From Clostridia bacterium (GTDB lineage: Bacteria > Bacillota > Clostridia > RGIG6154): 64,000 nucleotides of DNA. How positions within the stretch are numbered: the stretch's first letter is position 1; each line of letters starts with the position of its first letter. The position numbers and the translations under genes were made by a program. The notes under the pieces are model-generated. The model made no database searches. It worked only from the letters and a program-made list of their open reading frames with translations, and was not told where the DNA came from. This document shows positions 48,362 to 57,783 of this stretch, in pieces. The stretch is from contig JAZNWH010000129.1 of the NCBI GenBank assembly GCA_045593265.1, positions 4,646 to 68,645 of the forward strand, written 5' to 3'.

Positions 48362-48391
48362 AAAAAAACGGTTGGTCATCCAACCGTTTTT
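48362..48391. terminator. Bidirectional terminator
   Basis: AAAAAACGGTTGG-tcat-CCAACCGTTTTTT. Confidence 0.75.
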
Positions 48392-49539
48392 TGATTTATT
48401 TCCGTTACTATATCTACTACCTTTGAAAGAATGTTTTCCATATCGTTAAGCCTATTTGCAATTTGTAAGAGTATTTGAGAGGTGTTATCATTTTCTATTG
48501 CTCTTTTGATACTTTTAATCTCCTCTGAAACACTTTTTGTTTCATTTTTGGTTACTCCTGCAAACTTTTCTATATTGTTATCATCTTCTGTATTATGTAA
48601 TTTTCTGCGATAATTGAGATAATCATTTTCTTTGCCAAACAACCTCTTATATTCGTTTCCTTTTTTAAATGCATAGGTGTAAATGTAGTTACTATCATTA
48701 AAATCAAAGTCCTTTTGACCTGATATTTTTACGAGCATATATTTTTCAAAACCATCACAATGAAGATAATTTACATTATCCCACCTCTCATCCTTAAATT
48801 TACTTGCCAGTAATTTACCATAATACTCAAACACACAAACGACACTTTCTTCGTTATTTAGAAGACAACACTGAACCGACTTTGACAAAGACGATGCAAC
48901 CACAGCTGAATCAACTATAACTTTATATGTATTTGAATTTTTGACACAACAGGCAATATGTTTATTATTTCCTTTATCCAGACACATACTTATATGGTAG
49001 ACCTTTTCTTCAAGTGTCATAATTCTTTCTCTGCTTTCCCATCTTTTGGACTTCCACACATATACTGCTGTTTGCAGTGTTTCTCCATTGGTATATGCTA
49101 TATGTATATTTCGTTTTTCATCTTTAACAATACAAAAATTTATTTCGTTTTCACTTTCGCATATAACATCGGGATTTGTTCTGCTACCAAATATTTGATG
49201 AACAAGCAGGTATTTTTCATTATGTTTTAAAACATAAAATCCACAAAGCCAATTGTTGTTGCTTATCAATGTTATATTGTGATTATAATTTTCATTTTTA
49301 GTTGATTCTAAAACACATTCTCTGTCCCATATTCCATTATATGCTGACACATAAAGATTTCCTTTGGTTTGTGTCATTACATACAACACACCATTTTCGC
49401 TTACAGCAACATCAAAATCATCCATATCACATTCACAGACTGTTTCACATATTTGCCTATCAGGTCTATAACACTTAAGAGCCCCATCGTCTGAAAAAAA
49501 TTCCCATATTCCATTGGTATCATAAACAAGTTTTTTCAT
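48376..49539 (-). CDS. Hypothetical protein (beta-rich repeats, C-terminal coiled coil), possibly sporulation-specific
   Basis: 387-aa ORF with GGAGG RBS; sigma-E-like promoter upstream. Confidence 0.7.
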   Translation of the reverse strand: MKKLVYDTNGIWEFFSDDGALKCYRPDRQICETVCECDMDDFDVAVSENGVLYVMTQTKGNLYVSAYNGIWDRECVLESTKNENYNHNITLISNNNWLCGFYVLKHNEKYLLVHQIFGSRTNPDVICESENEINFCIVKDEKRNIHIAYTNGETLQTAVYVWKSKRWESRERIMTLEEKVYHISMCLDKGNNKHIACCVKNSNTYKVIVDSAVVASSLSKSVQCCLLNNEESVVCVFEYYGKLLASKFKDERWDNVNYLHCDGFEKYMLVKISGQKDFDFNDSNYIYTYAFKKGNEYKRLFGKENDYLNYRRKLHNTEDDNNIEKFAGVTKNETKSVSEEIKSIKRAIENDNTSQILLQIANRLNDMENILSKVVDIVTEINQKTVG

Positions 49540-49968: not shown

Positions 49969-51846
49969 ATGAAAAATTTAAAACTGAACAAATATACTTT
50001 GCTATTTTCGTTCACAGATATTTTAACAATTGCTTGTGCTTTTTTTTGTGGTTTCTTACTATTAAATCCTTTGGGCGCTTTTTCGGAAAATGAACTATAC
50101 ACTCTATGTCAATATATACTTATAACAGCATTTGTCAACATGTTGTCATTGTTATTTTCGGGAACTTACAATAAAGTATGGACTAAAGCTACCATTGTTG
50201 ATTATTTCCAGACCGTTTTCTTAGTTTCTTTCAATTTTATATTTTCATATATAATCGCAATTATTGCAAATTCACATCATGTTTCGATCAAGCTTTACAT
50301 AGTTTCGGCTTTCCTTACCTGTATGCTTGTTTTTGTTTCCCGAACATCTGTAAGATTTTTATCATATTACCAGCATTATTTAATTTTAAAATCAAAACAC
50401 AATAAGCAAAAGAAAGTGCTGATAGTAGGAGCAGGCTCTGCAGCAAAAATGCTCCTTGAAGATATACTTCTTAACAATCCTCTTAGTTATAACATAGCCG
50501 GCTTTGTTGATGATAACACAGAAAAAGTGGGCAGTTATCTTATGGGATACCGTGTATTGGGTACAAGAGACGACATTCCTAAAATATGTGAAAAAGACAA
50601 TATTGATACAATAATAATTGCAATTCCTTCCGCTTCCAAAAAAGAGATATCAAGAATTTTAGAATACTGTTCAAAAACAGATTGCAATGTTAAAATGGTT
50701 CCTGGTATCGGGGAGCTTATAAGTGTCAATGATGTGGGAATTTTCAAGCAGACAAGAAACATTCAGTTTGACGACCTTCTTTCCCGCGAACCTGTATCTC
50801 TTAACAACAAAGAAATATCAAACATACTTAAAGATAACGTCGTTATGGTTACCGGCGGAGGCGGATCTATCGGAAGTGAGCTTTGCAAACAGATTGCAAA
50901 ATTTGCTCCCTCAAAACTTATAATTGTTGACATTTATGAAAACACAACTTATGACACACAAATTGAACTTAAAAAATCTTTTCCGAATCTTGAACTTGAA
51001 GTTATCATTGCATCCATAAAAGATGAGGAAAGAATGGAGAATATTTTTGATAAATACAGACCCGATATTGTTTACCATGCAGCAGCACACAAGCATGTAC
51101 CTCTGATGGAAGACAGTCCCGGCGAAGCTGTTGAAAATAATATTTTCGGTACATACATTGTTGCAAAATGTGCTGATAAATTTGAAGTTAAAAAATTCAT
51201 TATGGTTTCTACAGACAAAGCTGTTAACCCTACAAATGTTATGGGTGCAACAAAACGTTTCTGCGAGATGATTGTACAGTCAATGAATACTGTAAGTAAG
51301 ACAACCTATTCCTGTGTGCGTTTTGGCAATGTCCTCGGAAGCCACGGTTCAGTTATACCACTATTCAAAAAACAAATCGAACAAGGTGGCCCCGTTACTG
51401 TTACACATAAAGATATTACAAGATTTTTTATGACAATTCCTGAAGCAGCTCAGCTAATACTCCAGGCATCATCTTACGCTAAAAGTGGTGAAATTTTTGT
51501 TCTTGATATGGGTGAACCGGTTAAAATATATGACCTGGCAGTTAAATATATTAAGCTTTCCGGCTACAAACCCGGCATTGATATTGATATTGATATCGTG
51601 GGACTTCGTCCTGGAGAAAAGCTTTATGAAGAACTGTTAATGGATGAAGAAGGACTTACAAATACTTCTAACGAAAGTATCTTTATAGGAAAAACTACAG
51701 CAATTGACTTGAACGTTATCAAAACTCATCTTAAACATCTTTCAACAGTAGTTAACTCCAAAAACAATGATGAGATTATAAGTGCCCTTCATGATGCTGT
51801 TCCTACTTTTGTATCTGCGGATGACTACAATTGCATAAAATCATAA
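49969..51846 (+). CDS. Polysaccharide biosynthesis nucleotide-sugar dehydratase (CapD/PglF/EpsC family)
   Basis: 4 TM; VTGGGGSIGSEL, HAAAHKHVP, STDKAVNP, RFGNVLGS, GLRPGEKLYEEL. Confidence 0.93.
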   Translation: MKNLKLNKYTLLFSFTDILTIACAFFCGFLLLNPLGAFSENELYTLCQYILITAFVNMLSLLFSGTYNKVWTKATIVDYFQTVFLVSFNFIFSYIIAIIANSHHVSIKLYIVSAFLTCMLVFVSRTSVRFLSYYQHYLILKSKHNKQKKVLIVGAGSAAKMLLEDILLNNPLSYNIAGFVDDNTEKVGSYLMGYRVLGTRDDIPKICEKDNIDTIIIAIPSASKKEISRILEYCSKTDCNVKMVPGIGELISVNDVGIFKQTRNIQFDDLLSREPVSLNNKEISNILKDNVVMVTGGGGSIGSELCKQIAKFAPSKLIIVDIYENTTYDTQIELKKSFPNLELEVIIASIKDEERMENIFDKYRPDIVYHAAAHKHVPLMEDSPGEAVENNIFGTYIVAKCADKFEVKKFIMVSTDKAVNPTNVMGATKRFCEMIVQSMNTVSKTTYSCVRFGNVLGSHGSVIPLFKKQIEQGGPVTVTHKDITRFFMTIPEAAQLILQASSYAKSGEIFVLDMGEPVKIYDLAVKYIKLSGYKPGIDIDIDIVGLRPGEKLYEELLMDEEGLTNTSNESIFIGKTTAIDLNVIKTHLKHLSTVVNSKNNDEIISALHDAVPTFVSADDYNCIKS

Positions 51847-51896: not shown

Positions 51897-52772
51897 ATGA
51901 AATTTTTACAAAAAAACAAAAACAAAGATAAAGCAAATGACAACAAGAATTACAAATATAATATTATTACAGACAATTCTCCTTTTTACATCAAGGAAGC
52001 CTATAAATCTTTGAGAACAAACATAATGTTCACTCTTGAAAACGAAACTTCAAAAGTAATTCTTATTACAAGCTCTATGGCCAAAGAAGGTAAATCAACT
52101 GTTTCAATCAACACTGCTATTACATTTGCCCAAACAGGCAGCAAAGTAATTCTTATTGATTGCGATTTAAGAAAACCTAAAATACACAGATATATGGATT
52201 TGCAAAATCAAAATGGTCTTTCTAATCTTCTAGGTGGATTTGCCAGCCTTGACGATGTAATCAGCCATACAAAATATGGATTTGACTGTATTACCTGTGG
52301 GCACATCCCACCAAACCCATCGGAATTACTTTCCTCAAATAAAATGGCAGACTTATTAGTTAAGCTTCGTGAGAAATATGATTACATCTTACTGGATACT
52401 CCTCCTGTGAATGTGGTTACCGATACCTGTGCAATCGGCAAGTTAGTAGATGGCGCGATTTTCGTTGTTAAGCACAACACCACAATGAATACAGACGTGG
52501 ATGCAGCTATTGCTGCACTTGAATTTTCAGAAACAAAAATACTTGGTTTTGTTTTCAACTCCTCTCCTACTGCAGGCGTTTTAGGATATCAAAAACGTGT
52601 TGGATACAGAAAATACTATTCATACAGAAAATATGGATATTCAAAAGGAAAATACGGATACTACAACAGCTACAAAAATTATGGTGGATACGGATATGGT
52701 TATTCTCCATCATCTTCAAAAACAGCGAATAACGAATCATCAAAAGATACAAATTCAGAAAATAAACAGTAA
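51897..52772 (+). CDS. BY-kinase, CpsD/CapB family tyrosine kinase
   Basis: EAYKSLRTN, EGKST, IDCDLRKP, LDTPP; C-terminal Tyr cluster. Confidence 0.93.
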   Translation: MKFLQKNKNKDKANDNKNYKYNIITDNSPFYIKEAYKSLRTNIMFTLENETSKVILITSSMAKEGKSTVSINTAITFAQTGSKVILIDCDLRKPKIHRYMDLQNQNGLSNLLGGFASLDDVISHTKYGFDCITCGHIPPNPSELLSSNKMADLLVKLREKYDYILLDTPPVNVVTDTCAIGKLVDGAIFVVKHNTTMNTDVDAAIAALEFSETKILGFVFNSSPTAGVLGYQKRVGYRKYYSYRKYGYSKGKYGYYNSYKNYGGYGYGYSPSSSKTANNESSKDTNSENKQ

Positions 52773-52844: not shown

Positions 52845-53573
52845 ATGAATAATAATTTATGCATATGTGATTTTCATTCACATATACTCCCCTCTATTGA
52901 TGACGGTGCGAAAGATACATCTATGGCTGTAACTCTTCTGAAAGAAGAAATAGAACAAGGAGTAAAGCATCTTTGCCTTACTCCTCATTTTTATTCTAAT
53001 GAAAACGTTGAGTCATTCATAAAAAAACGCAACCTCTCGTTTCTTAAACTAAAAGAACAAATATATAAAGAAAACATCAAAAACGTACCTAATATGCATT
53101 TAGGGGCTGAAGTTGCTTTAAACTATACTACACCGGAAATACCTGATTTAAACAAGCTTTGTTTAGGCGATACGGAATTACTGCTTTTGGAAATGCCTGA
53201 CACATTTTGGGGAGATTGGATACCTGAGGTTTTGTACAGAATTTCAGCAGAAAAATCATTAACACCAATAATCGCCCATGCAGACAGATATATTGATAAT
53301 AAGAATTCCATAAAAATACTACAAAAACTGATAGATATGGATATTATTATGCAATTTAATTCGTACAATCTTACACATCCCAAGGTTGTCGGACTTATAA
53401 AGAAAATTCTTGCAAGAAATGTAAACACCCCATTGATTGGCAGTGATGCCCATAACACCAAATATCGTTCTGTTACAATCAAAAAAGTTAGTTCCCCACT
53501 GCATAAAATTCTATATGGTAAAAATTTCATAAATAATATAAATACATTTACAGAAAGTATTTTAATAAAATAA
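52845..53573 (+). CDS. PHP-type tyrosine phosphatase, CpsB/CapC family
   Basis: DFHSHILPSIDDGA, TPHF, IAHADRY, GSDAHN. Confidence 0.92.
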   Translation: MNNNLCICDFHSHILPSIDDGAKDTSMAVTLLKEEIEQGVKHLCLTPHFYSNENVESFIKKRNLSFLKLKEQIYKENIKNVPNMHLGAEVALNYTTPEIPDLNKLCLGDTELLLLEMPDTFWGDWIPEVLYRISAEKSLTPIIAHADRYIDNKNSIKILQKLIDMDIIMQFNSYNLTHPKVVGLIKKILARNVNTPLIGSDAHNTKYRSVTIKKVSSPLHKILYGKNFINNINTFTESILIK

Positions 53574-53600
53574 AACCTCTCATACGAGAGGTTTTATTTT
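53567..53600. terminator. Bidirectional terminator between the two convergent cargo units
   Basis: AAAATAAAACCTCTC-atac-GAGAGGTTTTATTTT. Confidence 0.8.
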
Positions 53601-54318
53601 ATGCTGTCGTTTTCTTTGGATTTTGTTCCTCATTTTCAAAAATCGGAAGCTCCGCAAGTACAGGATAATTAAATTTTTCTCTTAATGATACCGTATCTTT
53701 AATTCTGTCATCGAAAAGTTCTATCATAATCACAAGTGCAGCACCTATAACAAATCCTAACATAGACAAAACAGTTGCATTTCTTTTTGTATTTGGTGCT
53801 GATGTAGAACGTGGTATTTCAGGATGGTCTATAATCTTTACATTACCACCTGTAACAACTCTCGCAACCTCACTCTGGGCATTATTAAGTACAGTTTCAA
53901 CGATAATTGCCGCATGCTCAGGATTAGGATGTGTACAGCTTACAGAAATAATTTCTGTATCACCTTTTGCTGATACCGAAACAAAGGATGCCAACTGTCT
54001 GAAATTATAGTCAAGTCCTGTTTCTGCGCTAACACTCTTGAAAAATGTATTACTTGAAAGTATCTGTACATAATTCTTTACAAGCTCACGGGCATATATT
54101 ATATCTGAATACTCACCTTTCTTGGTCATATAATTACTGTTATCAGCAGTTATATATACGGACCCTCTTGCAGTATACACAGGTGTTACCATTAATTTTG
54201 TATACGCAACCGAACCTATAAAGAAAACTATTGTAAAAATAGCAACTACCCACCAACGATTTAATACCATTACTACTAAATCCCATACACTGATTTGTTC
54301 TCTGTTCAAAACTCTCAC
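53599..54318 (-). CDS. CpsC/CapA (Wzz-like) polysaccharide co-polymerase / BY-kinase activator
   Basis: Two TM; TPVYTA, DDRIKD..., PVLAELP. Confidence 0.88.
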   Translation of the reverse strand: MRVLNREQISVWDLVVMVLNRWWVVAIFTIVFFIGSVAYTKLMVTPVYTARGSVYITADNSNYMTKKGEYSDIIYARELVKNYVQILSSNTFFKSVSAETGLDYNFRQLASFVSVSAKGDTEIISVSCTHPNPEHAAIIVETVLNNAQSEVARVVTGGNVKIIDHPEIPRSTSAPNTKRNATVLSMLGFVIGAALVIMIELFDDRIKDTVSLREKFNYPVLAELPIFENEEQNPKKTTA

Positions 54319-54350
54319 CTCATTGTAAATGTTATCTAAAACTATAATTA

Positions 54351-55214
54351 TTAATCAAGAGACAATATATCTTTAACTGCGTATACCGCTTCTTTACTGA
54401 TAGTACATTTCATCAAATAAACTTTCGCAACATCAATCAGCTTTTTTAAATCATCAATAAAAATACTAACCATATGTTCCAATACAGGTTTATTAATTTC
54501 ATTATATAGCCTGAAAAATGCTGTAACACCATCAATCTGAGATATTTCCACACTGCTATGCTGTTCAATACAAATTATTCCTGCAAGTCTTGACTTTATA
54601 TTGTTATTTATAAAATGCTTGCCTGACCACGGTGTTCCGTAAACATATACTTCTCCATCTGTTATTCTCATAACAGGATTATCATCATTGATATAAACAA
54701 CATCCTCTAAGTGTTGTTTCCACAAAGATGTCTGTGTAGACTTTCCCGTTCCTGATGGTGCAGAAAACAAGATAGCATTTCCTTTATATGAAATAGCGGA
54801 GGCGTGAATAACATACGCATGATGCATCATCAACATATAATAAAAGGCCTGTCCAACTAATCCAAATAACTTTAAATCAATTGACGGCCCACCTATCAAA
54901 GATGTATCCTTAGCACAGATATCTGCACGATTAAAATCCTTATTCCATGTTATTTTCGCAAGGCACAAGTCGTAGCTTTGAGAATAAGTATATGCATATA
55001 CAGAACCATCAGCATTATCAATGTGCCATGAAAAACGCCCTGCACCTACAACATCTTCGTCAAAACGTTCAAGTTCAATTTCATCCTGCACTTTATAAGT
55101 AATAACCATATCTGCACCCGAAAACGGCATTTCATACTCTTTTAACTTTTCAGACAGAAAAGCATTAGAGTTGCCTGTTATTTCAAGCTTATATCCTGCA
55201 ATTAAATACTTCAC
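54351..55214 (-). CDS. HPr-kinase-like P-loop protein (RiPP/lasso-peptide kinase-like)
   Basis: IHASAI, SAPSGTGKST, INDD, YGTPWSGK. Confidence 0.75.
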   Translation of the reverse strand: MKYLIAGYKLEITGNSNAFLSEKLKEYEMPFSGADMVITYKVQDEIELERFDEDVVGAGRFSWHIDNADGSVYAYTYSQSYDLCLAKITWNKDFNRADICAKDTSLIGGPSIDLKLFGLVGQAFYYMLMMHHAYVIHASAISYKGNAILFSAPSGTGKSTQTSLWKQHLEDVVYINDDNPVMRITDGEVYVYGTPWSGKHFINNNIKSRLAGIICIEQHSSVEISQIDGVTAFFRLYNEINKPVLEHMVSIFIDDLKKLIDVAKVYLMKCTISKEAVYAVKDILSLD

Positions 55215-55216
55215 TT

Positions 55217-55399
55217 TTATGTATTTGTGTTGCTTGTTCCATAAGCTTCCAACAAACCAATTTCATTATCTGTAACAAGACCAGAATCGCTATATCCATC
55301 AGATTGCGAATCAGAAACAGAGTCCGGAACCAATGCAGTAACGGTTTCTTTAACCTGTAATTCAACTATATTCAAAATTGGCTTTTCATATTTAATCAT
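55217..55399 (-). CDS. Putative RiPP precursor peptide (60 aa)
   Basis: GGAGG RBS; leader KYEKPIL (YxxPxL); Ser/Asp-rich C-terminal half; lies between PqqD and the kinase. Confidence 0.65.
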   Translation of the reverse strand: MIKYEKPILNIVELQVKETVTALVPDSVSDSQSDGYSDSGLVTDNEIGLLEAYGTSNTNT

Positions 55400-55499
55400 A
55401 TACTAAACCTCCAATACCAACTTCATTCATTAATAACTAACATCCATACTTTGCATTTTCTTCTGACAAAGCACATAAAAACACTAATTTTACTCCTAT

Positions 55500-55528
55500 A
55501 TTATATACCAAATTCTCTTAAAAGTCAA
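55500..55528 (-). promoter_or_regulatory. Sigma-A promoter of the peptide-kinase unit
   Basis: TTGACT-17 nt-TATAAT. Confidence 0.7.
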
Positions 55529-55547
55529 TAGAATAAAATGTAAATCA

Positions 55548-55826
55548 TCAATTTTCCAATAAGTTTTGACTTGCAAGCTTAAAAACAAATTCATTGACAT
55601 CATTATCGGCACATTCAACATCAATTTCAAATGCTTCTGCAAATTTGCTTACCAATTCGCTATATTCTGTTCCTTCATCAAGTTGTTGCCATATCCATGC
55701 ACCTGTTTCATTTGTTGTAAGCATCTTTTTGAAGTCTACTATATTTTTCCCAGTTGGCACCACTATATAATCTCCTGCTATGTTCTTTAAAACAAAGCCG
55801 CTTTTGTGTTTAAGAAATTTTCTCAT
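55548..55826 (-). CDS. PqqD-family protein (stand-alone RiPP recognition element)
   Basis: FVLKNIAGDYIVVP, NETGAWIWQQL, DVNEFV..L...NLL. Confidence 0.88.
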   Translation of the reverse strand: MRKFLKHKSGFVLKNIAGDYIVVPTGKNIVDFKKMLTTNETGAWIWQQLDEGTEYSELVSKFAEAFEIDVECADNDVNEFVFKLASQNLLEN

Positions 55827-55861
55827 ATAATTATCTTCTTCCTTTAATTAGCTTTACGTTA

Positions 55862-55890
55862 ATTATATCATTTTTTTTTGAATTAATCAA
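55862..55890 (-). promoter_or_regulatory. Sigma-A promoter of the PqqD gene, with an A9 tract in the spacer
   Basis: TTGATT-17 nt (ending TGa)-TATAAT. Confidence 0.55.
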
Positions 55891-57019
55891 CATCTTTCCA
55901 AAATACCGTAATGTCTTTACTGCTTAAAACAATTCTTTTCACAAGATTTTGAATTACAAAAAAATCCAGGTATTTATTATCTTTTTCTAAGCGTAATTTC
56001 TTTAGTATAATTTGAATAATTTTATTTTCTGATACATTATTACGACAATCTACACATATAATCTTTTGGTTTTTTCTTATACATTTTCCACCACATTCAC
56101 ATTTCAGCAAACCACTTAAAGGATTCATCAACCCGTTTTTATCACTTCTATGACCATTTTTTATTTTTTCCTGAGTAAATGCATATATTTGTGGGTCGAT
56201 TATTCTCTTATGAGTATTTTTTACACATATCCATTCATTTTCAGGAACAGATATTCTTTTTTTGCTTTTATAGCTTAATTTATTTTTCCTGTTTTGAACC
56301 AGGTTTCCGCAGTAAACAGGATTTGTCAAAATATCCTTAACTGTTCCCCCTGTCCAGTTATAGCCTTGTTTTTTCTCTCTGTAATTCATAGGAGAAACAA
56401 TTTTTTCTTTATTTAATATCTGGGCAATTTTAGATGTTCCGAAACCAAAATTATATAACCAGAATATAATCCTTACTGTCTGTTCTGTTTTGGCATCCTT
56501 AATCAGTTGATTTTTATTTTCAGGGTTTTTCATATATCCATAAGGTGCAAAAGCAAACAAACACTCCCCTTTTCTCATCTTATCCTTGAACACCGCTCTT
56601 ATATTTTCTGACAAATCCTCAAGGTACCATTCGTTTATAAGTGAATTAATCTGTCTTGTTTTTTTGTTGTTTTTATCATATGAATCAGTATTGTCAACTA
56701 CAGATATAAACCGTATACCCAGCTCAAGAAATTTGTTGTTAATAAATTTATCTATTATACTGATATCTCTTGAAAATCTTGACATCGTTTTACATATTAC
56801 TGTATCAAAACATTTATTTTCTGCATCTTTAAGCATTCTGTTAAACTCAGGCCGTTCTGCATTTATTCCCGAATAATCCTCATCTACATATATATTGTAT
56901 ATATCGTAGCAGTTATCTATACAGTAATTTATCAACATACTTTTTTGATTTAAAATGCTTTCACTTTCATCGCCGGTTTCATCTTCTTTTGATATTCTGC
57001 AATATAATGCCGCTTTTAT
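55883..57019 (-). CDS. Large-serine-recombinase family protein (378 aa from an ATA start; SpoIVCA/TndX-like)
   Basis: Frame extends upstream of the called ORF to IKAALYCRISKED (catalytic Ser); also DEDYSG...RP, SRFSRD, APYGY, ILTNPVYCG and a Zn ribbon CECG/CVDC. Confidence 0.9.
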   Translation of the reverse strand: MKAALYCRISKEDETGDESESILNQKSMLINYCIDNCYDIYNIYVDEDYSGINAERPEFNRMLKDAENKCFDTVICKTMSRFSRDISIIDKFINNKFLELGIRFISVVDNTDSYDKNNKKTRQINSLINEWYLEDLSENIRAVFKDKMRKGECLFAFAPYGYMKNPENKNQLIKDAKTEQTVRIIFWLYNFGFGTSKIAQILNKEKIVSPMNYREKKQGYNWTGGTVKDILTNPVYCGNLVQNRKNKLSYKSKKRISVPENEWICVKNTHKRIIDPQIYAFTQEKIKNGHRSDKNGLMNPLSGLLKCECGGKCIRKNQKIICVDCRNNVSENKIIQIILKKLRLEKDNKYLDFFVIQNLVKRIVLSSKDITVFWKDVD

Positions 57020-57110
57020 CTTTATTCACTCCTTCATGATAATATTTTTCGATAAATTTTATTAGTTCTTCAATCTTTGCTTTGTTAAAATTTTTATGAA
57101 TTACTTTCAT
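56979..57110 (-). CDS. 43-aa ORF overlapping the recombinase start (candidate directionality factor or translational-coupling leader)
   Basis: GGTGG RBS; MKVIHKNFNKAKIEELIKFIEKYYHEGVNKDKSGIILQNIKRR*. Confidence 0.45.
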   Translation of the reverse strand: MKVIHKNFNKAKIEELIKFIEKYYHEGVNKDKSGIILQNIKRR

Positions 57111-57157
57111 TCAACCACCAATTAATTATATTGCTGATGCAAAGCGAAAAGAACAAC

Positions 57158-57174
57158 AAAGATACACAGATGTG
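57158..57174 (+). other. attR recombination site
   Basis: AAAGATACAC arm + AGA (core ATACACAGA at 57162-57170) followed by TGTG. Confidence 0.85.
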
Positions 57175-57783
57175 GAACCCGTTCAGTTCAATCAGGGCTA
57201 CTATACTGTTGATATAAGATTCTATTTCAGAGTTACTCTTGATGTATACGCTGAACTTGGCAGACCTAAGAGAGTCGAAGGCATTGCTATTTATGACAAA
57301 AAAATTGCACTTTTCGGTTCCGAAGGCAAGTCAAAGATATTCCAGTCATCTTTCAATGAAGGTGCACCTGATAAACAGATAAGAGAAAAAAGCAATGTTC
57401 CTAAAGCTGTAGTTGAAGTAGTAGATCCTATTGCACTCAGCGCAAGAATTGCAGATAAATGTTCTGATAATTTATGTTGCGGCAATTGCGAAGTATCTTC
57501 AATACCTGAATGTATTTTAAATTGCTTCGAAGGTGCAATTTGTCCTGCAGATACAGAAAAAAGAGTTTATGTTACTTTAGGATTATTTACAATAACAAAA
57601 CTCGAAAGAAATGTACAGCTTCTCATTCCTGTATATGATTTCTGTATTCCTACTGACGAATGTGTTTCATCTTCTCCTGCTAATCCTTGCGACTTGTTCG
57701 ATCAGATTCAGTTCCCGGTTGATGAATTCTTCCCACCTCAGAAGCACGATTTCTTCGGTAACAACAATTGTGATTGTCAGTAA
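57171..57783 (+). CDS. 3' segment of the interrupted Cys-rich putative spore coat/exosporium gene
   Basis: No convincing RBS; VEPVQFNQGYY...PCDLFDQIQFPVDEFFPPQK...CDCQ*; in frame with 49657-49871 after excision. Confidence 0.85.

Follow-up and report, generated by a model that had tools for sequence, protein, structure and literature searches.

We analysed a three-gene module on the minus strand of a 64,000-nucleotide stretch of a Clostridia bacterium genome (contig JAZNWH010000129.1; this whole stretch is called the window below). The module encodes a PqqD-family protein, a small peptide and an enzyme, and sequence comparison indicates that this trio is a cut-down copy of a peptide-modifying gene set that is widespread in gut Clostridia and lies mostly amid cell-surface genes. 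On balance, we slightly favour the reading that the trio is a rearranged, cut-down peptide-maturation cassette of the ScmC type, in which the enzyme would phosphorylate a PqqD-presented peptide for the cell surface. The three genes and the two parts of the peptide are located as follows.

55548..55826, minus strand: PqqD-family gene, 92 aa, putative leader-binding recognition element for a peptide made by ribosomes and modified after translation (RiPP recognition element, RRE) (Pfam PF05402)
55399..55217, minus strand: peptide gene, 60 aa (listing of open reading frames, ORFs)
55334..55399, minus strand: peptide residues 1–22, conserved leader MIKYEKPILNIVELQVKETVTA (alignment)
55217..55333, minus strand: peptide residues 23–60 and stop codon, putative core (alignment)
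55214..54351, minus strand: enzyme gene, 287 aa, GTG start (ORF listing)

Enzyme, peptide and PqqD protein of the module

The enzyme was classified by its homologues, its modelled fold and its catalytic motifs. A word-seeded search with the enzyme detected 3510 homologues, and precomputed annotation placed PF27840, identified with ScmC by the Atlas, on 119 of the 120 best of them, including one that was 98 % identical. An AlphaFold2 (AF2) model of the enzyme, built on 25 homologues with a predicted local distance difference test score (pLDDT) of 93, matched ATP-dependent phosphoenolpyruvate carboxykinase (PEPCK; E 6e-7) and HPr kinase/phosphorylase (HprK/P; E 2.7e-5 and weaker) in Foldseek, the identity of the structural matches being about 10–16 %. 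Invariant in the 25 homologues were H137, the Walker A segment F150–T160 (P-loop 152–160), N176-D177-D178, and G193, P195, W196 and G198. In an hhalign comparison with the genome's own HprK (probability 49 %, E 1.7e-4), FSAPSGTGKST and NDD of the enzyme were aligned with GESGVGKSE and ADD, and the His was aligned as well. Based on PF27840 on the homologues, the fold matches and this alignment of the His, P-loop and Asp-Asp motifs, the enzyme is modelled as a phosphotransferase of the HPr-kinase/PEPCK fold that belongs to the ScmC family and not to Hpr_kinase_C. The initial annotation of an HPr-kinase-like enzyme stands for fold and motifs, and by way of its homologues the enzyme is assigned to the ScmC family, not to the Pfam family of lasso and HPr kinases. 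A true HprK is encoded separately in the genome (contig C105) and scored 249.7 bits to PF07475. A sequence search of the Protein Data Bank with the enzyme profile was uninformative, giving P-loop matches to guanylate kinase alone (E about 1).

The enzyme family was present in 29 of 61 related genomes, including all 17 of the same family. In a same-genus genome the enzyme is only 58 % identical, yet all of the module is present there in an unchanged arrangement; a metagenome scan for close relatives gave partial matches of 36–42 % identity and nothing nearer than this genome. Strains were compared on the contigs of four DNA runs, and 40 of the 96 differences were listed; those listed for the enzyme (n=12) were seven synonymous changes, four Ile/Val exchanges and one change of the GTG start to ATG (one run). 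DNA-methylase or PurD domains are present in other long matches to the enzyme, possibly through errors of gene calling or assembly.

The peptide is, as judged from sequence conservation, a real, conserved gene and more than a chance ORF, because its leader is kept upstream of the enzyme in relatives and because synonymous differences (pS) exceed non-synonymous ones (pN). An ORF of 53–62 aa with the same leader was located 0–50 bp upstream of the enzyme gene at 10 of 11 relatives' loci, no leader peptide being found upstream of the enzyme at the remaining one (L011). The leader consensus is M-x-x-Y-x-K-P-x-h-x-V-h-E-L, and the window peptide carries the YxxPxL motif as Y4-E-K-P7-I-L9. M1, Y4 and P7 were invariant in 19 aligned peptides, and K6, L14 and E18 were retained in at least 90 %. 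For leader codons 2–25 of 16 loci, mean pS was 0.655 and mean pN was 0.311, with pS greater than pN in 113 of 120 locus pairs, a pattern that indicates purifying selection on the leader. Cleavage of the leader is predicted after V20-T21-A22, following the Ala-x-Ala rule of S26 peptidases.

Of the 264 predicted proteins matched by a peptide profile search, none has a name. In the best 120 homologues, [T/S]-h-Y was found just past the leader in 116 (3.3 expected from shuffled cores), a C-terminal Ser in 73 (12.2 expected) and a Ser within the last ten residues in all 120 (80.1 expected), these homologues being related to each other so that the counts overstate independence. In the window peptide, which lacks Cys, S27 occupies the [T/S]-h-Y column, and the peptide of this species has DSVS in place of KTIY. 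The initial annotation had named repeated SDS motifs along with the proposed phosphorylation of the peptide, but the SDS-rich acidic stretch (residues 26–39) was limited to the variants of the window species (P0212, P0236 and P0213), the nearest relatives carrying KTIYK-type sequence at this position, and it is therefore not a conserved target. The conserved features are the leader, the [T/S]-h-Y motif and a Ser that is C-terminal or close to it; YGTSN (53–57) is kept within the clade, and the motif SE-h-x-x-LE-x-Y-x-x-SN-x-T-x is common to genus-level relatives. Among the strain differences listed, those of the peptide fell in codons 43–58 and kept the frame, and S56 was retained where G54 and T55 vary (P0236).

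The PqqD-family protein scored 58.9 bits to PF05402 (cut-off 23.4) and was 34–60 % identical to the PqqD proteins of related cassettes. Against the Lasso_PqqD models of NCBIfam it reached 31 bits (cut-offs 70–80), and it had no match to the ScmD model TIGR04248, to which the PqqD protein of a related cassette (L013) scored 17.5 bits (cut-off 100). These values, the YxxPxL-type leader and the HPr-kinase fold together agree with the initial assignment of the locus as a RiPP-like module of a non-lasso kind. Prediction of a complex of PqqD, enzyme and peptide gave no evidence either way, the control scoring as high as the complex. A second PqqD-family gene of the genome (116 aa) comes directly after a gene for a 635-aa membrane protein (the pair at C40 19659-21913), looks unrelated and was rejected as part of the module.

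The larger cassette and the context of the locus

Neighbouring genes were surveyed at 79 enzyme loci in genome contigs, on the same strand and within 4 kb; many of these loci are cut by contig ends, and some long-form loci represent the same genome twice. The following neighbours were counted.

PqqD: 61 of 79 enzyme loci
S24/S26-like peptidase: 41 of 79
ATP-binding cassette (ABC) exporter: 28 of 79
S-layer-homology (SLH) protein: 15 of 79
Wzz: 15 of 79
Leader-type peptide: 14 of 79
Secreted protein of about 300 aa: 11 of 79

In the long-form clade of the window enzyme, the gene order was PqqD, peptidase, ABC exporter, secreted protein, peptide, ScmC, SLH protein, Wzz and, in some cases, CpsD (for instance, L013, L014, L016-L018, L032, L050, L053, L058 and L094-L096). 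Compared with this order, the window trio appears to be a rearranged fragment of a cassette of 7–9 genes, and the term 'minimal' first applied to the module does not hold. The coupling to cpsC that was also proposed at first recurs, since adjacency to Wzz/CpsC was repeated at 12 type-A loci, mostly with an SLH gene in between.

The cassette peptidase has the motifs GxSMxP, HR and GD, invariant in 14 sequences, as in signal peptidases of the SipW/Sec11 type, and is without an N-terminal membrane segment; the homologue at L013 scored 30.6 bits to TIGR02228 (cut-off 51.85). The secreted protein of the cassette was modelled as a chain of immunoglobulin (Ig)-like beta domains (pLDDT 74), and its fold search gave generic matches to tandem Ig-like adhesins with TM-scores near 0.2 and no specific family. 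NTP_transf_5 was detected at 11 of the examined loci and a radical S-adenosylmethionine (SAM)/SPASM gene at only two (L078 and L035). The first of these (L078 4089-10490) comprises glycosyltransferases, PqqD, the radical SAM/SPASM protein, two Cys-rich peptides with the same leader as the window peptide, ScmC, an S26-like peptidase, an ABC exporter and NTP_transf_5, and thereby links the forms of the cassette with and without radical SAM enzymes. Fused forms were also observed (among P0121, P0126, P0127 and P0129), joining ScmC to NTP_transf_5 or to both NTP_transf_5 and ABC, and an enzyme homologue annotated with Peptidase_S24 was among the same four. At 51 loci (among L024-L091), the enzyme is of a short form of about 235 aa that misses part of the N-terminal domain, the usual order being ScmC, PqqD and S26-like peptidase.

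Further candidate maturation genes were found elsewhere in the window genome, as the initial annotation had anticipated. On contig C89 (L131 2231-4307), a putative SipW-type peptidase (152 aa; 19.4 bits to Peptidase_S24, cut-off 23.3) adjoins an ABC exporter (553 aa), and the pair has a regulator of the AraC type and EamA/YdcZ transporters for neighbours. Contig C80 encodes an NTP_transf_5 protein of 409 aa. The 4.7-kb contig C48 (L132 1573-4543) carries part of an ABC exporter gene, an IS200-like gene and the gene of a secreted protein of 451 aa. It also encodes a second peptide, which has the leader type of the window peptide but a different tail, and after it come an IS3 transposase and the end of the contig. 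A second ScmC gene was not found in the genome. In the same-genus genome, the peptidase likewise lies apart from the block of PqqD, peptide, enzyme and Wzz; the sharing of this split layout at 58 % enzyme identity indicates that the layout is old and maintained.

The remaining features of the locus are listed below.

54318..53599, minus strand: Wzz/CpsC-type chain-length determinant, 239 aa (Pfam)
55500..55528, minus strand: promoter-like site before the peptide gene, TTGACT-17-TATAAT, 11/12 (promoter scan)
55862..55890, minus strand: promoter-like site before the PqqD gene, TTGATT-17-TATAAT, TG-extended, 10/12 (consensus match alone)
55408..55412, minus strand: GGAGG ribosome-binding site, 8 nt ahead of the peptide ATG (sequence reading)
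53565..53602, no strand assigned: hairpin resembling a terminator, between cpsC and cpsB, which converge (promoter/terminator scan)
55883..56938, minus strand: remnant of a serine recombinase, 351 aa, at the module border (Pfam Resolvase and Recombinase domains)
49969-51846, plus strand: CapD-like gene, convergent with the module (Pfam)
51897-52772, plus strand: CpsD-like tyrosine kinase gene, convergent with the module (Pfam)
52845-53573, plus strand: CpsB phosphatase gene, convergent with the module (Pfam)

On the minus strand, the order is recombinase remnant, PqqD, peptide, enzyme and Wzz/CpsC. The PqqD gene is followed by the peptide gene after a spacer of 148 bp and by the enzyme gene after 333 bp. 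The spacing given by the initial annotation was read again from the sequence, with 2 bp between the peptide stop and the enzyme GTG and 32 bp between the enzyme stop and the cpsC GTG (with a TTG 9 bp downstream as an alternative cpsC start), and its assignment of a promoter and a ribosome-binding site to the peptide gene was likewise supported. The promoter-like site before the peptide gene was the top-scoring site of the region 53300-57300, in which such sites as a class were not enriched (17 observed vs 22.1 expected). The scan of this region detected no terminator between the enzyme gene and cpsC and a single terminator-like site, the hairpin at 53565..53602, which is likely to be the end of the peptide–enzyme–cpsC transcript. 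Given the promoter-like site before the peptide gene and this lone hairpin after cpsC, the three genes probably form a single transcript. The Wzz/CpsC protein scored 48.3 bits to PF02706 Wzz (cut-off 25.5), 27.3 bits to GNVR, slightly under its cut-off (27.7), and 108.7 to TIGR01006, under its cut-off (296). The Resolvase match of the recombinase remnant begins at profile position 25, indicating that the N-terminal catalytic stretch is missing, and an ORF homologous to it (L002 2974-3858) also flanks the module of the same-genus genome. Just past the remnant is an ORF for a Cys-rich protein of 203 aa (57172-57783, plus strand) with no Pfam or NCBIfam match, and a 387-aa ORF with no Pfam match (48376-49539, minus strand) lies between RNase Y and the CapD-like gene.

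Proposed pathway and competing explanations

From the genes, fold, conserved catalytic motifs, neighbourhoods, fusions and selection on the peptide described above, we infer by analogy a pathway of binding, phosphorylation at a given site, cleavage, export and action at the surface. PqqD, as the RRE, would bind the leader (Y4-x-K6-P7-x-L9 ... E13-L14) and present the peptide to the enzyme, which would use ATP to phosphorylate a hydroxyl residue in the peptide tail. The first candidate site is S56 in YGTSN, near the C-terminus, and the second is S27 at the [T/S]-h-Y position. The putative SipW/Sec11-type peptidase encoded on C89 would then remove the leader, probably at the predicted site, and the C89 exporter would carry the product out, while the NTP_transf_5 enzyme may extend the phosphate. 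A role at the cell surface is proposed because the cassette of the relatives sits between the secreted Ig-like protein, the SLH protein and Wzz/CpsD.

Several results weigh against this phosphorylation pathway. The enzyme scored far below the cut-offs of the ScmC model TIGR04249 (16.7 bits vs 125) and of HprK_rel_A of NCBIfam (21.4 bits vs 200), and had no Pfam match at E <= 0.01, including none to Hpr_kinase_C (PF07475). The window peptide is the exception at the Tyr column (S29), and its last residue is Thr instead of Ser. In the window genome, the genes for peptidase, exporter and nucleotidyltransferase lie apart from the module, so that their partnership is deduced from the relatives only. 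The profile hidden Markov models (HMMs) used for the neighbours were built from 5–11 sequences each and the ORFs were called by a simple script of our own; the counts across loci and peptides are phylogenetically non-independent. A leader-type peptide was not found at 48 of the 51 short-form loci, which suggests that the ScmC family may have other substrates; a leader-profile search in the loci without a precursor (E up to 50) gave nothing convincing. To our knowledge, no activity has been demonstrated for any ScmC-family member. A full-text literature search, supplements not included, returned no description of the cassette, and look-ups of the terms kinase, HPr, signal peptidase and S-layer in two RRE genome-mining papers (PMC7470986, PMC12710340) gave no occurrence.

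The pathway and the substrate could be as proposed and the chemistry a different use of ATP, such as nucleotidylation or pyro- or polyphosphorylation; or the enzyme could form an intermediate whose phosphate is then lost by elimination or exchanged for a glycosyl or other group. We consider this rather unlikely, and yet it survives best among the alternatives. No ScmC member has been characterised, PEPCK-fold enzymes perform varied phosphoryl transfers, and ScmC is fused or adjacent to NTP_transf_5 in several relatives; furthermore, lasso kinases can polyphosphorylate and the phosphate can be glycosylated, according to excerpts of PMC8498205. However, the conserved set of His, P-loop and Asp-Asp is that of an HprK-type Ser kinase, the cassette is without a lyase or follow-up enzyme, and NTP_transf_5 was detected in just 11 of the examined loci.

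It is also conceivable, with a low probability, that the enzyme phosphorylates an envelope component, be it the SLH or Ig-like protein, Wzz/CpsD, or a polysaccharide or a precursor of one. The peptide would then be exported without modification, as a pheromone or a bacteriocin-like product that PqqD chaperones to the peptidase and exporter. The flanking of the enzyme by SLH, Wzz, CpsD or glycosyltransferase genes at many loci, the missing precursor at most short-form loci, and the continuation of the window enzyme gene into cpsC without a terminator are consistent with this possibility. Nevertheless, the tightest partner of the enzyme is PqqD (61 of 79 loci), compared with 15 each for Wzz and SLH, and in the window clade the genes for peptide and enzyme are 0–50 bp apart. 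In addition, the enrichment of C-terminal Ser in the peptides fits the specificity of the HPr-kinase homologues of RiPP pathways, as described in the excerpts of PMC8498205.

Decay of the locus, in which recombinase and insertion sequence (IS) activity broke an ancestral cassette and left an unproductive PqqD–peptide–enzyme fragment, is improbable: the recombinase remnant at the module border, the peptidase and exporter on another contig, the interruption of the second peptide locus (C48) by IS200-like and IS3 transposases, and the loss of the near-invariant KTIY motif would fit it, but none of the three ORFs is broken, the same-genus genome retains the split layout with an enzyme of 58 % identity, the listed strain variants keep their frames with synonymous or conservative differences in the enzyme, and the C-terminal motif SE-h-x-x-LE-x-Y-x-x-SN is conserved over the genus-level clade. 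Equally far-fetched at present is an extension of the phosphorylation pathway in which the peptide would be a ribosomal handle of the cell envelope, with ScmC phosphorylating a near-C-terminal Ser and NTP_transf_5 together with the cps machinery (Wzz/CpsD) adding a phosphate-linked glycan; if true, it would mean a peptide-primed or peptide-capped surface polymer working with the SLH and Ig-like proteins of the cassette.

Comparison with known systems

The module was compared with lasso peptide clusters, with HprK/P and PEPCK, and with the SynChlorMet (SCM) cassette. As a lasso cluster it was rejected, because no lasso cyclase or B2 peptidase was found. Neither a lasso cyclase nor a radical SAM gene was detected in the window, in agreement with the initial annotation, which had noted that cyclase, B2 peptidase and radical SAM enzyme are absent from the element; cyclase and B2 peptidase were not found genome-wide either. 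The only PF00733 (Asn_synthase) match in the genome (23.4 bits, profile positions 8-51) is a 333-aa PP-loop protein on contig C40, encoded among nucleotide-metabolism genes, and Transglut_core3/B2 peptidase (PF13471) gave no matches in the whole genome, which is 94.95 % complete.

Phosphorylated or phosphoglycosylated lasso peptides are made with the kinases PadeK (paeninodin), BsfK (Bradymonas bsf) and PsmK (pseudomycoidin) and the nucleotidyltransferase PsmN. Lasso kinases are assigned to the HPr kinase C-terminal domain family PF07475. The module resembles these clusters in its YxxPxL-type leader, discrete PqqD-type RRE and HPr-kinase-fold enzyme, in an ABC exporter, in the NTP_transf_5 of some relatives, and in the enrichment of Ser at or near the C-terminus of the peptides. 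In contrast, the candidate leader peptidase here is putatively of the SipW/Sec11 type, the window enzyme is without a Hpr_kinase_C match and the window peptide ends in Thr. In the excerpts of PMC8498205, linear lasso precursors receive a phosphate on their C-terminal Ser from homologues of HPr kinase, which can also polyphosphorylate, and a nucleotidyltransferase then puts hexoses on the phosphate; in those of PMC10368454, a discrete PqqD-type RRE strongly stimulates the lasso-type kinase on a precursor with a YxxPxL leader. Compared with HprK/P and ATP-dependent PEPCK, the window enzyme shares the fold and the His, Walker A and Asp-Asp motifs, but it differs in its N-terminal domain and gene context.

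Since the homologues of the enzyme carry PF27840 (ScmC), the nearest known kind, on sequence grounds, is the SCM cassette and not the lasso cluster. The SCM cassette, defined from genomes only, comprises ScmC, the PqqD-like ScmD and the radical SAM/SPASM proteins ScmE and ScmF (TIGR04248-TIGR04251, PF27840). Both kinds have an enzyme of the HPr-kinase fold, assigned in the window to the ScmC family by way of its homologues, beside a PqqD-family protein and a small precursor-like peptide, and, as in SCM, the relatives of the window module encode an ABC exporter and a peptidase of the S24/S26 type, in some cases with NTP_transf_5. The window module differs from SCM in being without the two PqqE-like maturases ScmE and ScmF, in its Cys-free peptide, in scores far under the cut-offs of the SCM models of NCBIfam, and in the splitting of the cassette over several contigs of the genome. 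With no radical SAM partner and a peptide without Cys, co-expression of the three genes should yield a single, readable modification, and this three-gene form may serve as a clean test bed for assigning a function to the whole ScmC family, a very large one (3510 homologues from one query) hitherto represented by database models only.

What appears to be new relative to SCM is a very large branch, in gut Clostridia, that has neither the radical SAM enzymes nor the cysteines, a candidate for leader removal in a peptidase that is putatively SipW-type, and the embedding of the cassette amid cell-surface genes for SLH, secreted Ig-like and Wzz/CpsD proteins. This last difference from the SCM cassette, the repeated placement in gut and rumen Clostridia amid genes for S-layer-homology, secreted Ig-like and polysaccharide chain-length proteins, suggests that the modification of ribosomal peptides is connected, in a way not recognised before, with the assembly of the cell surface.

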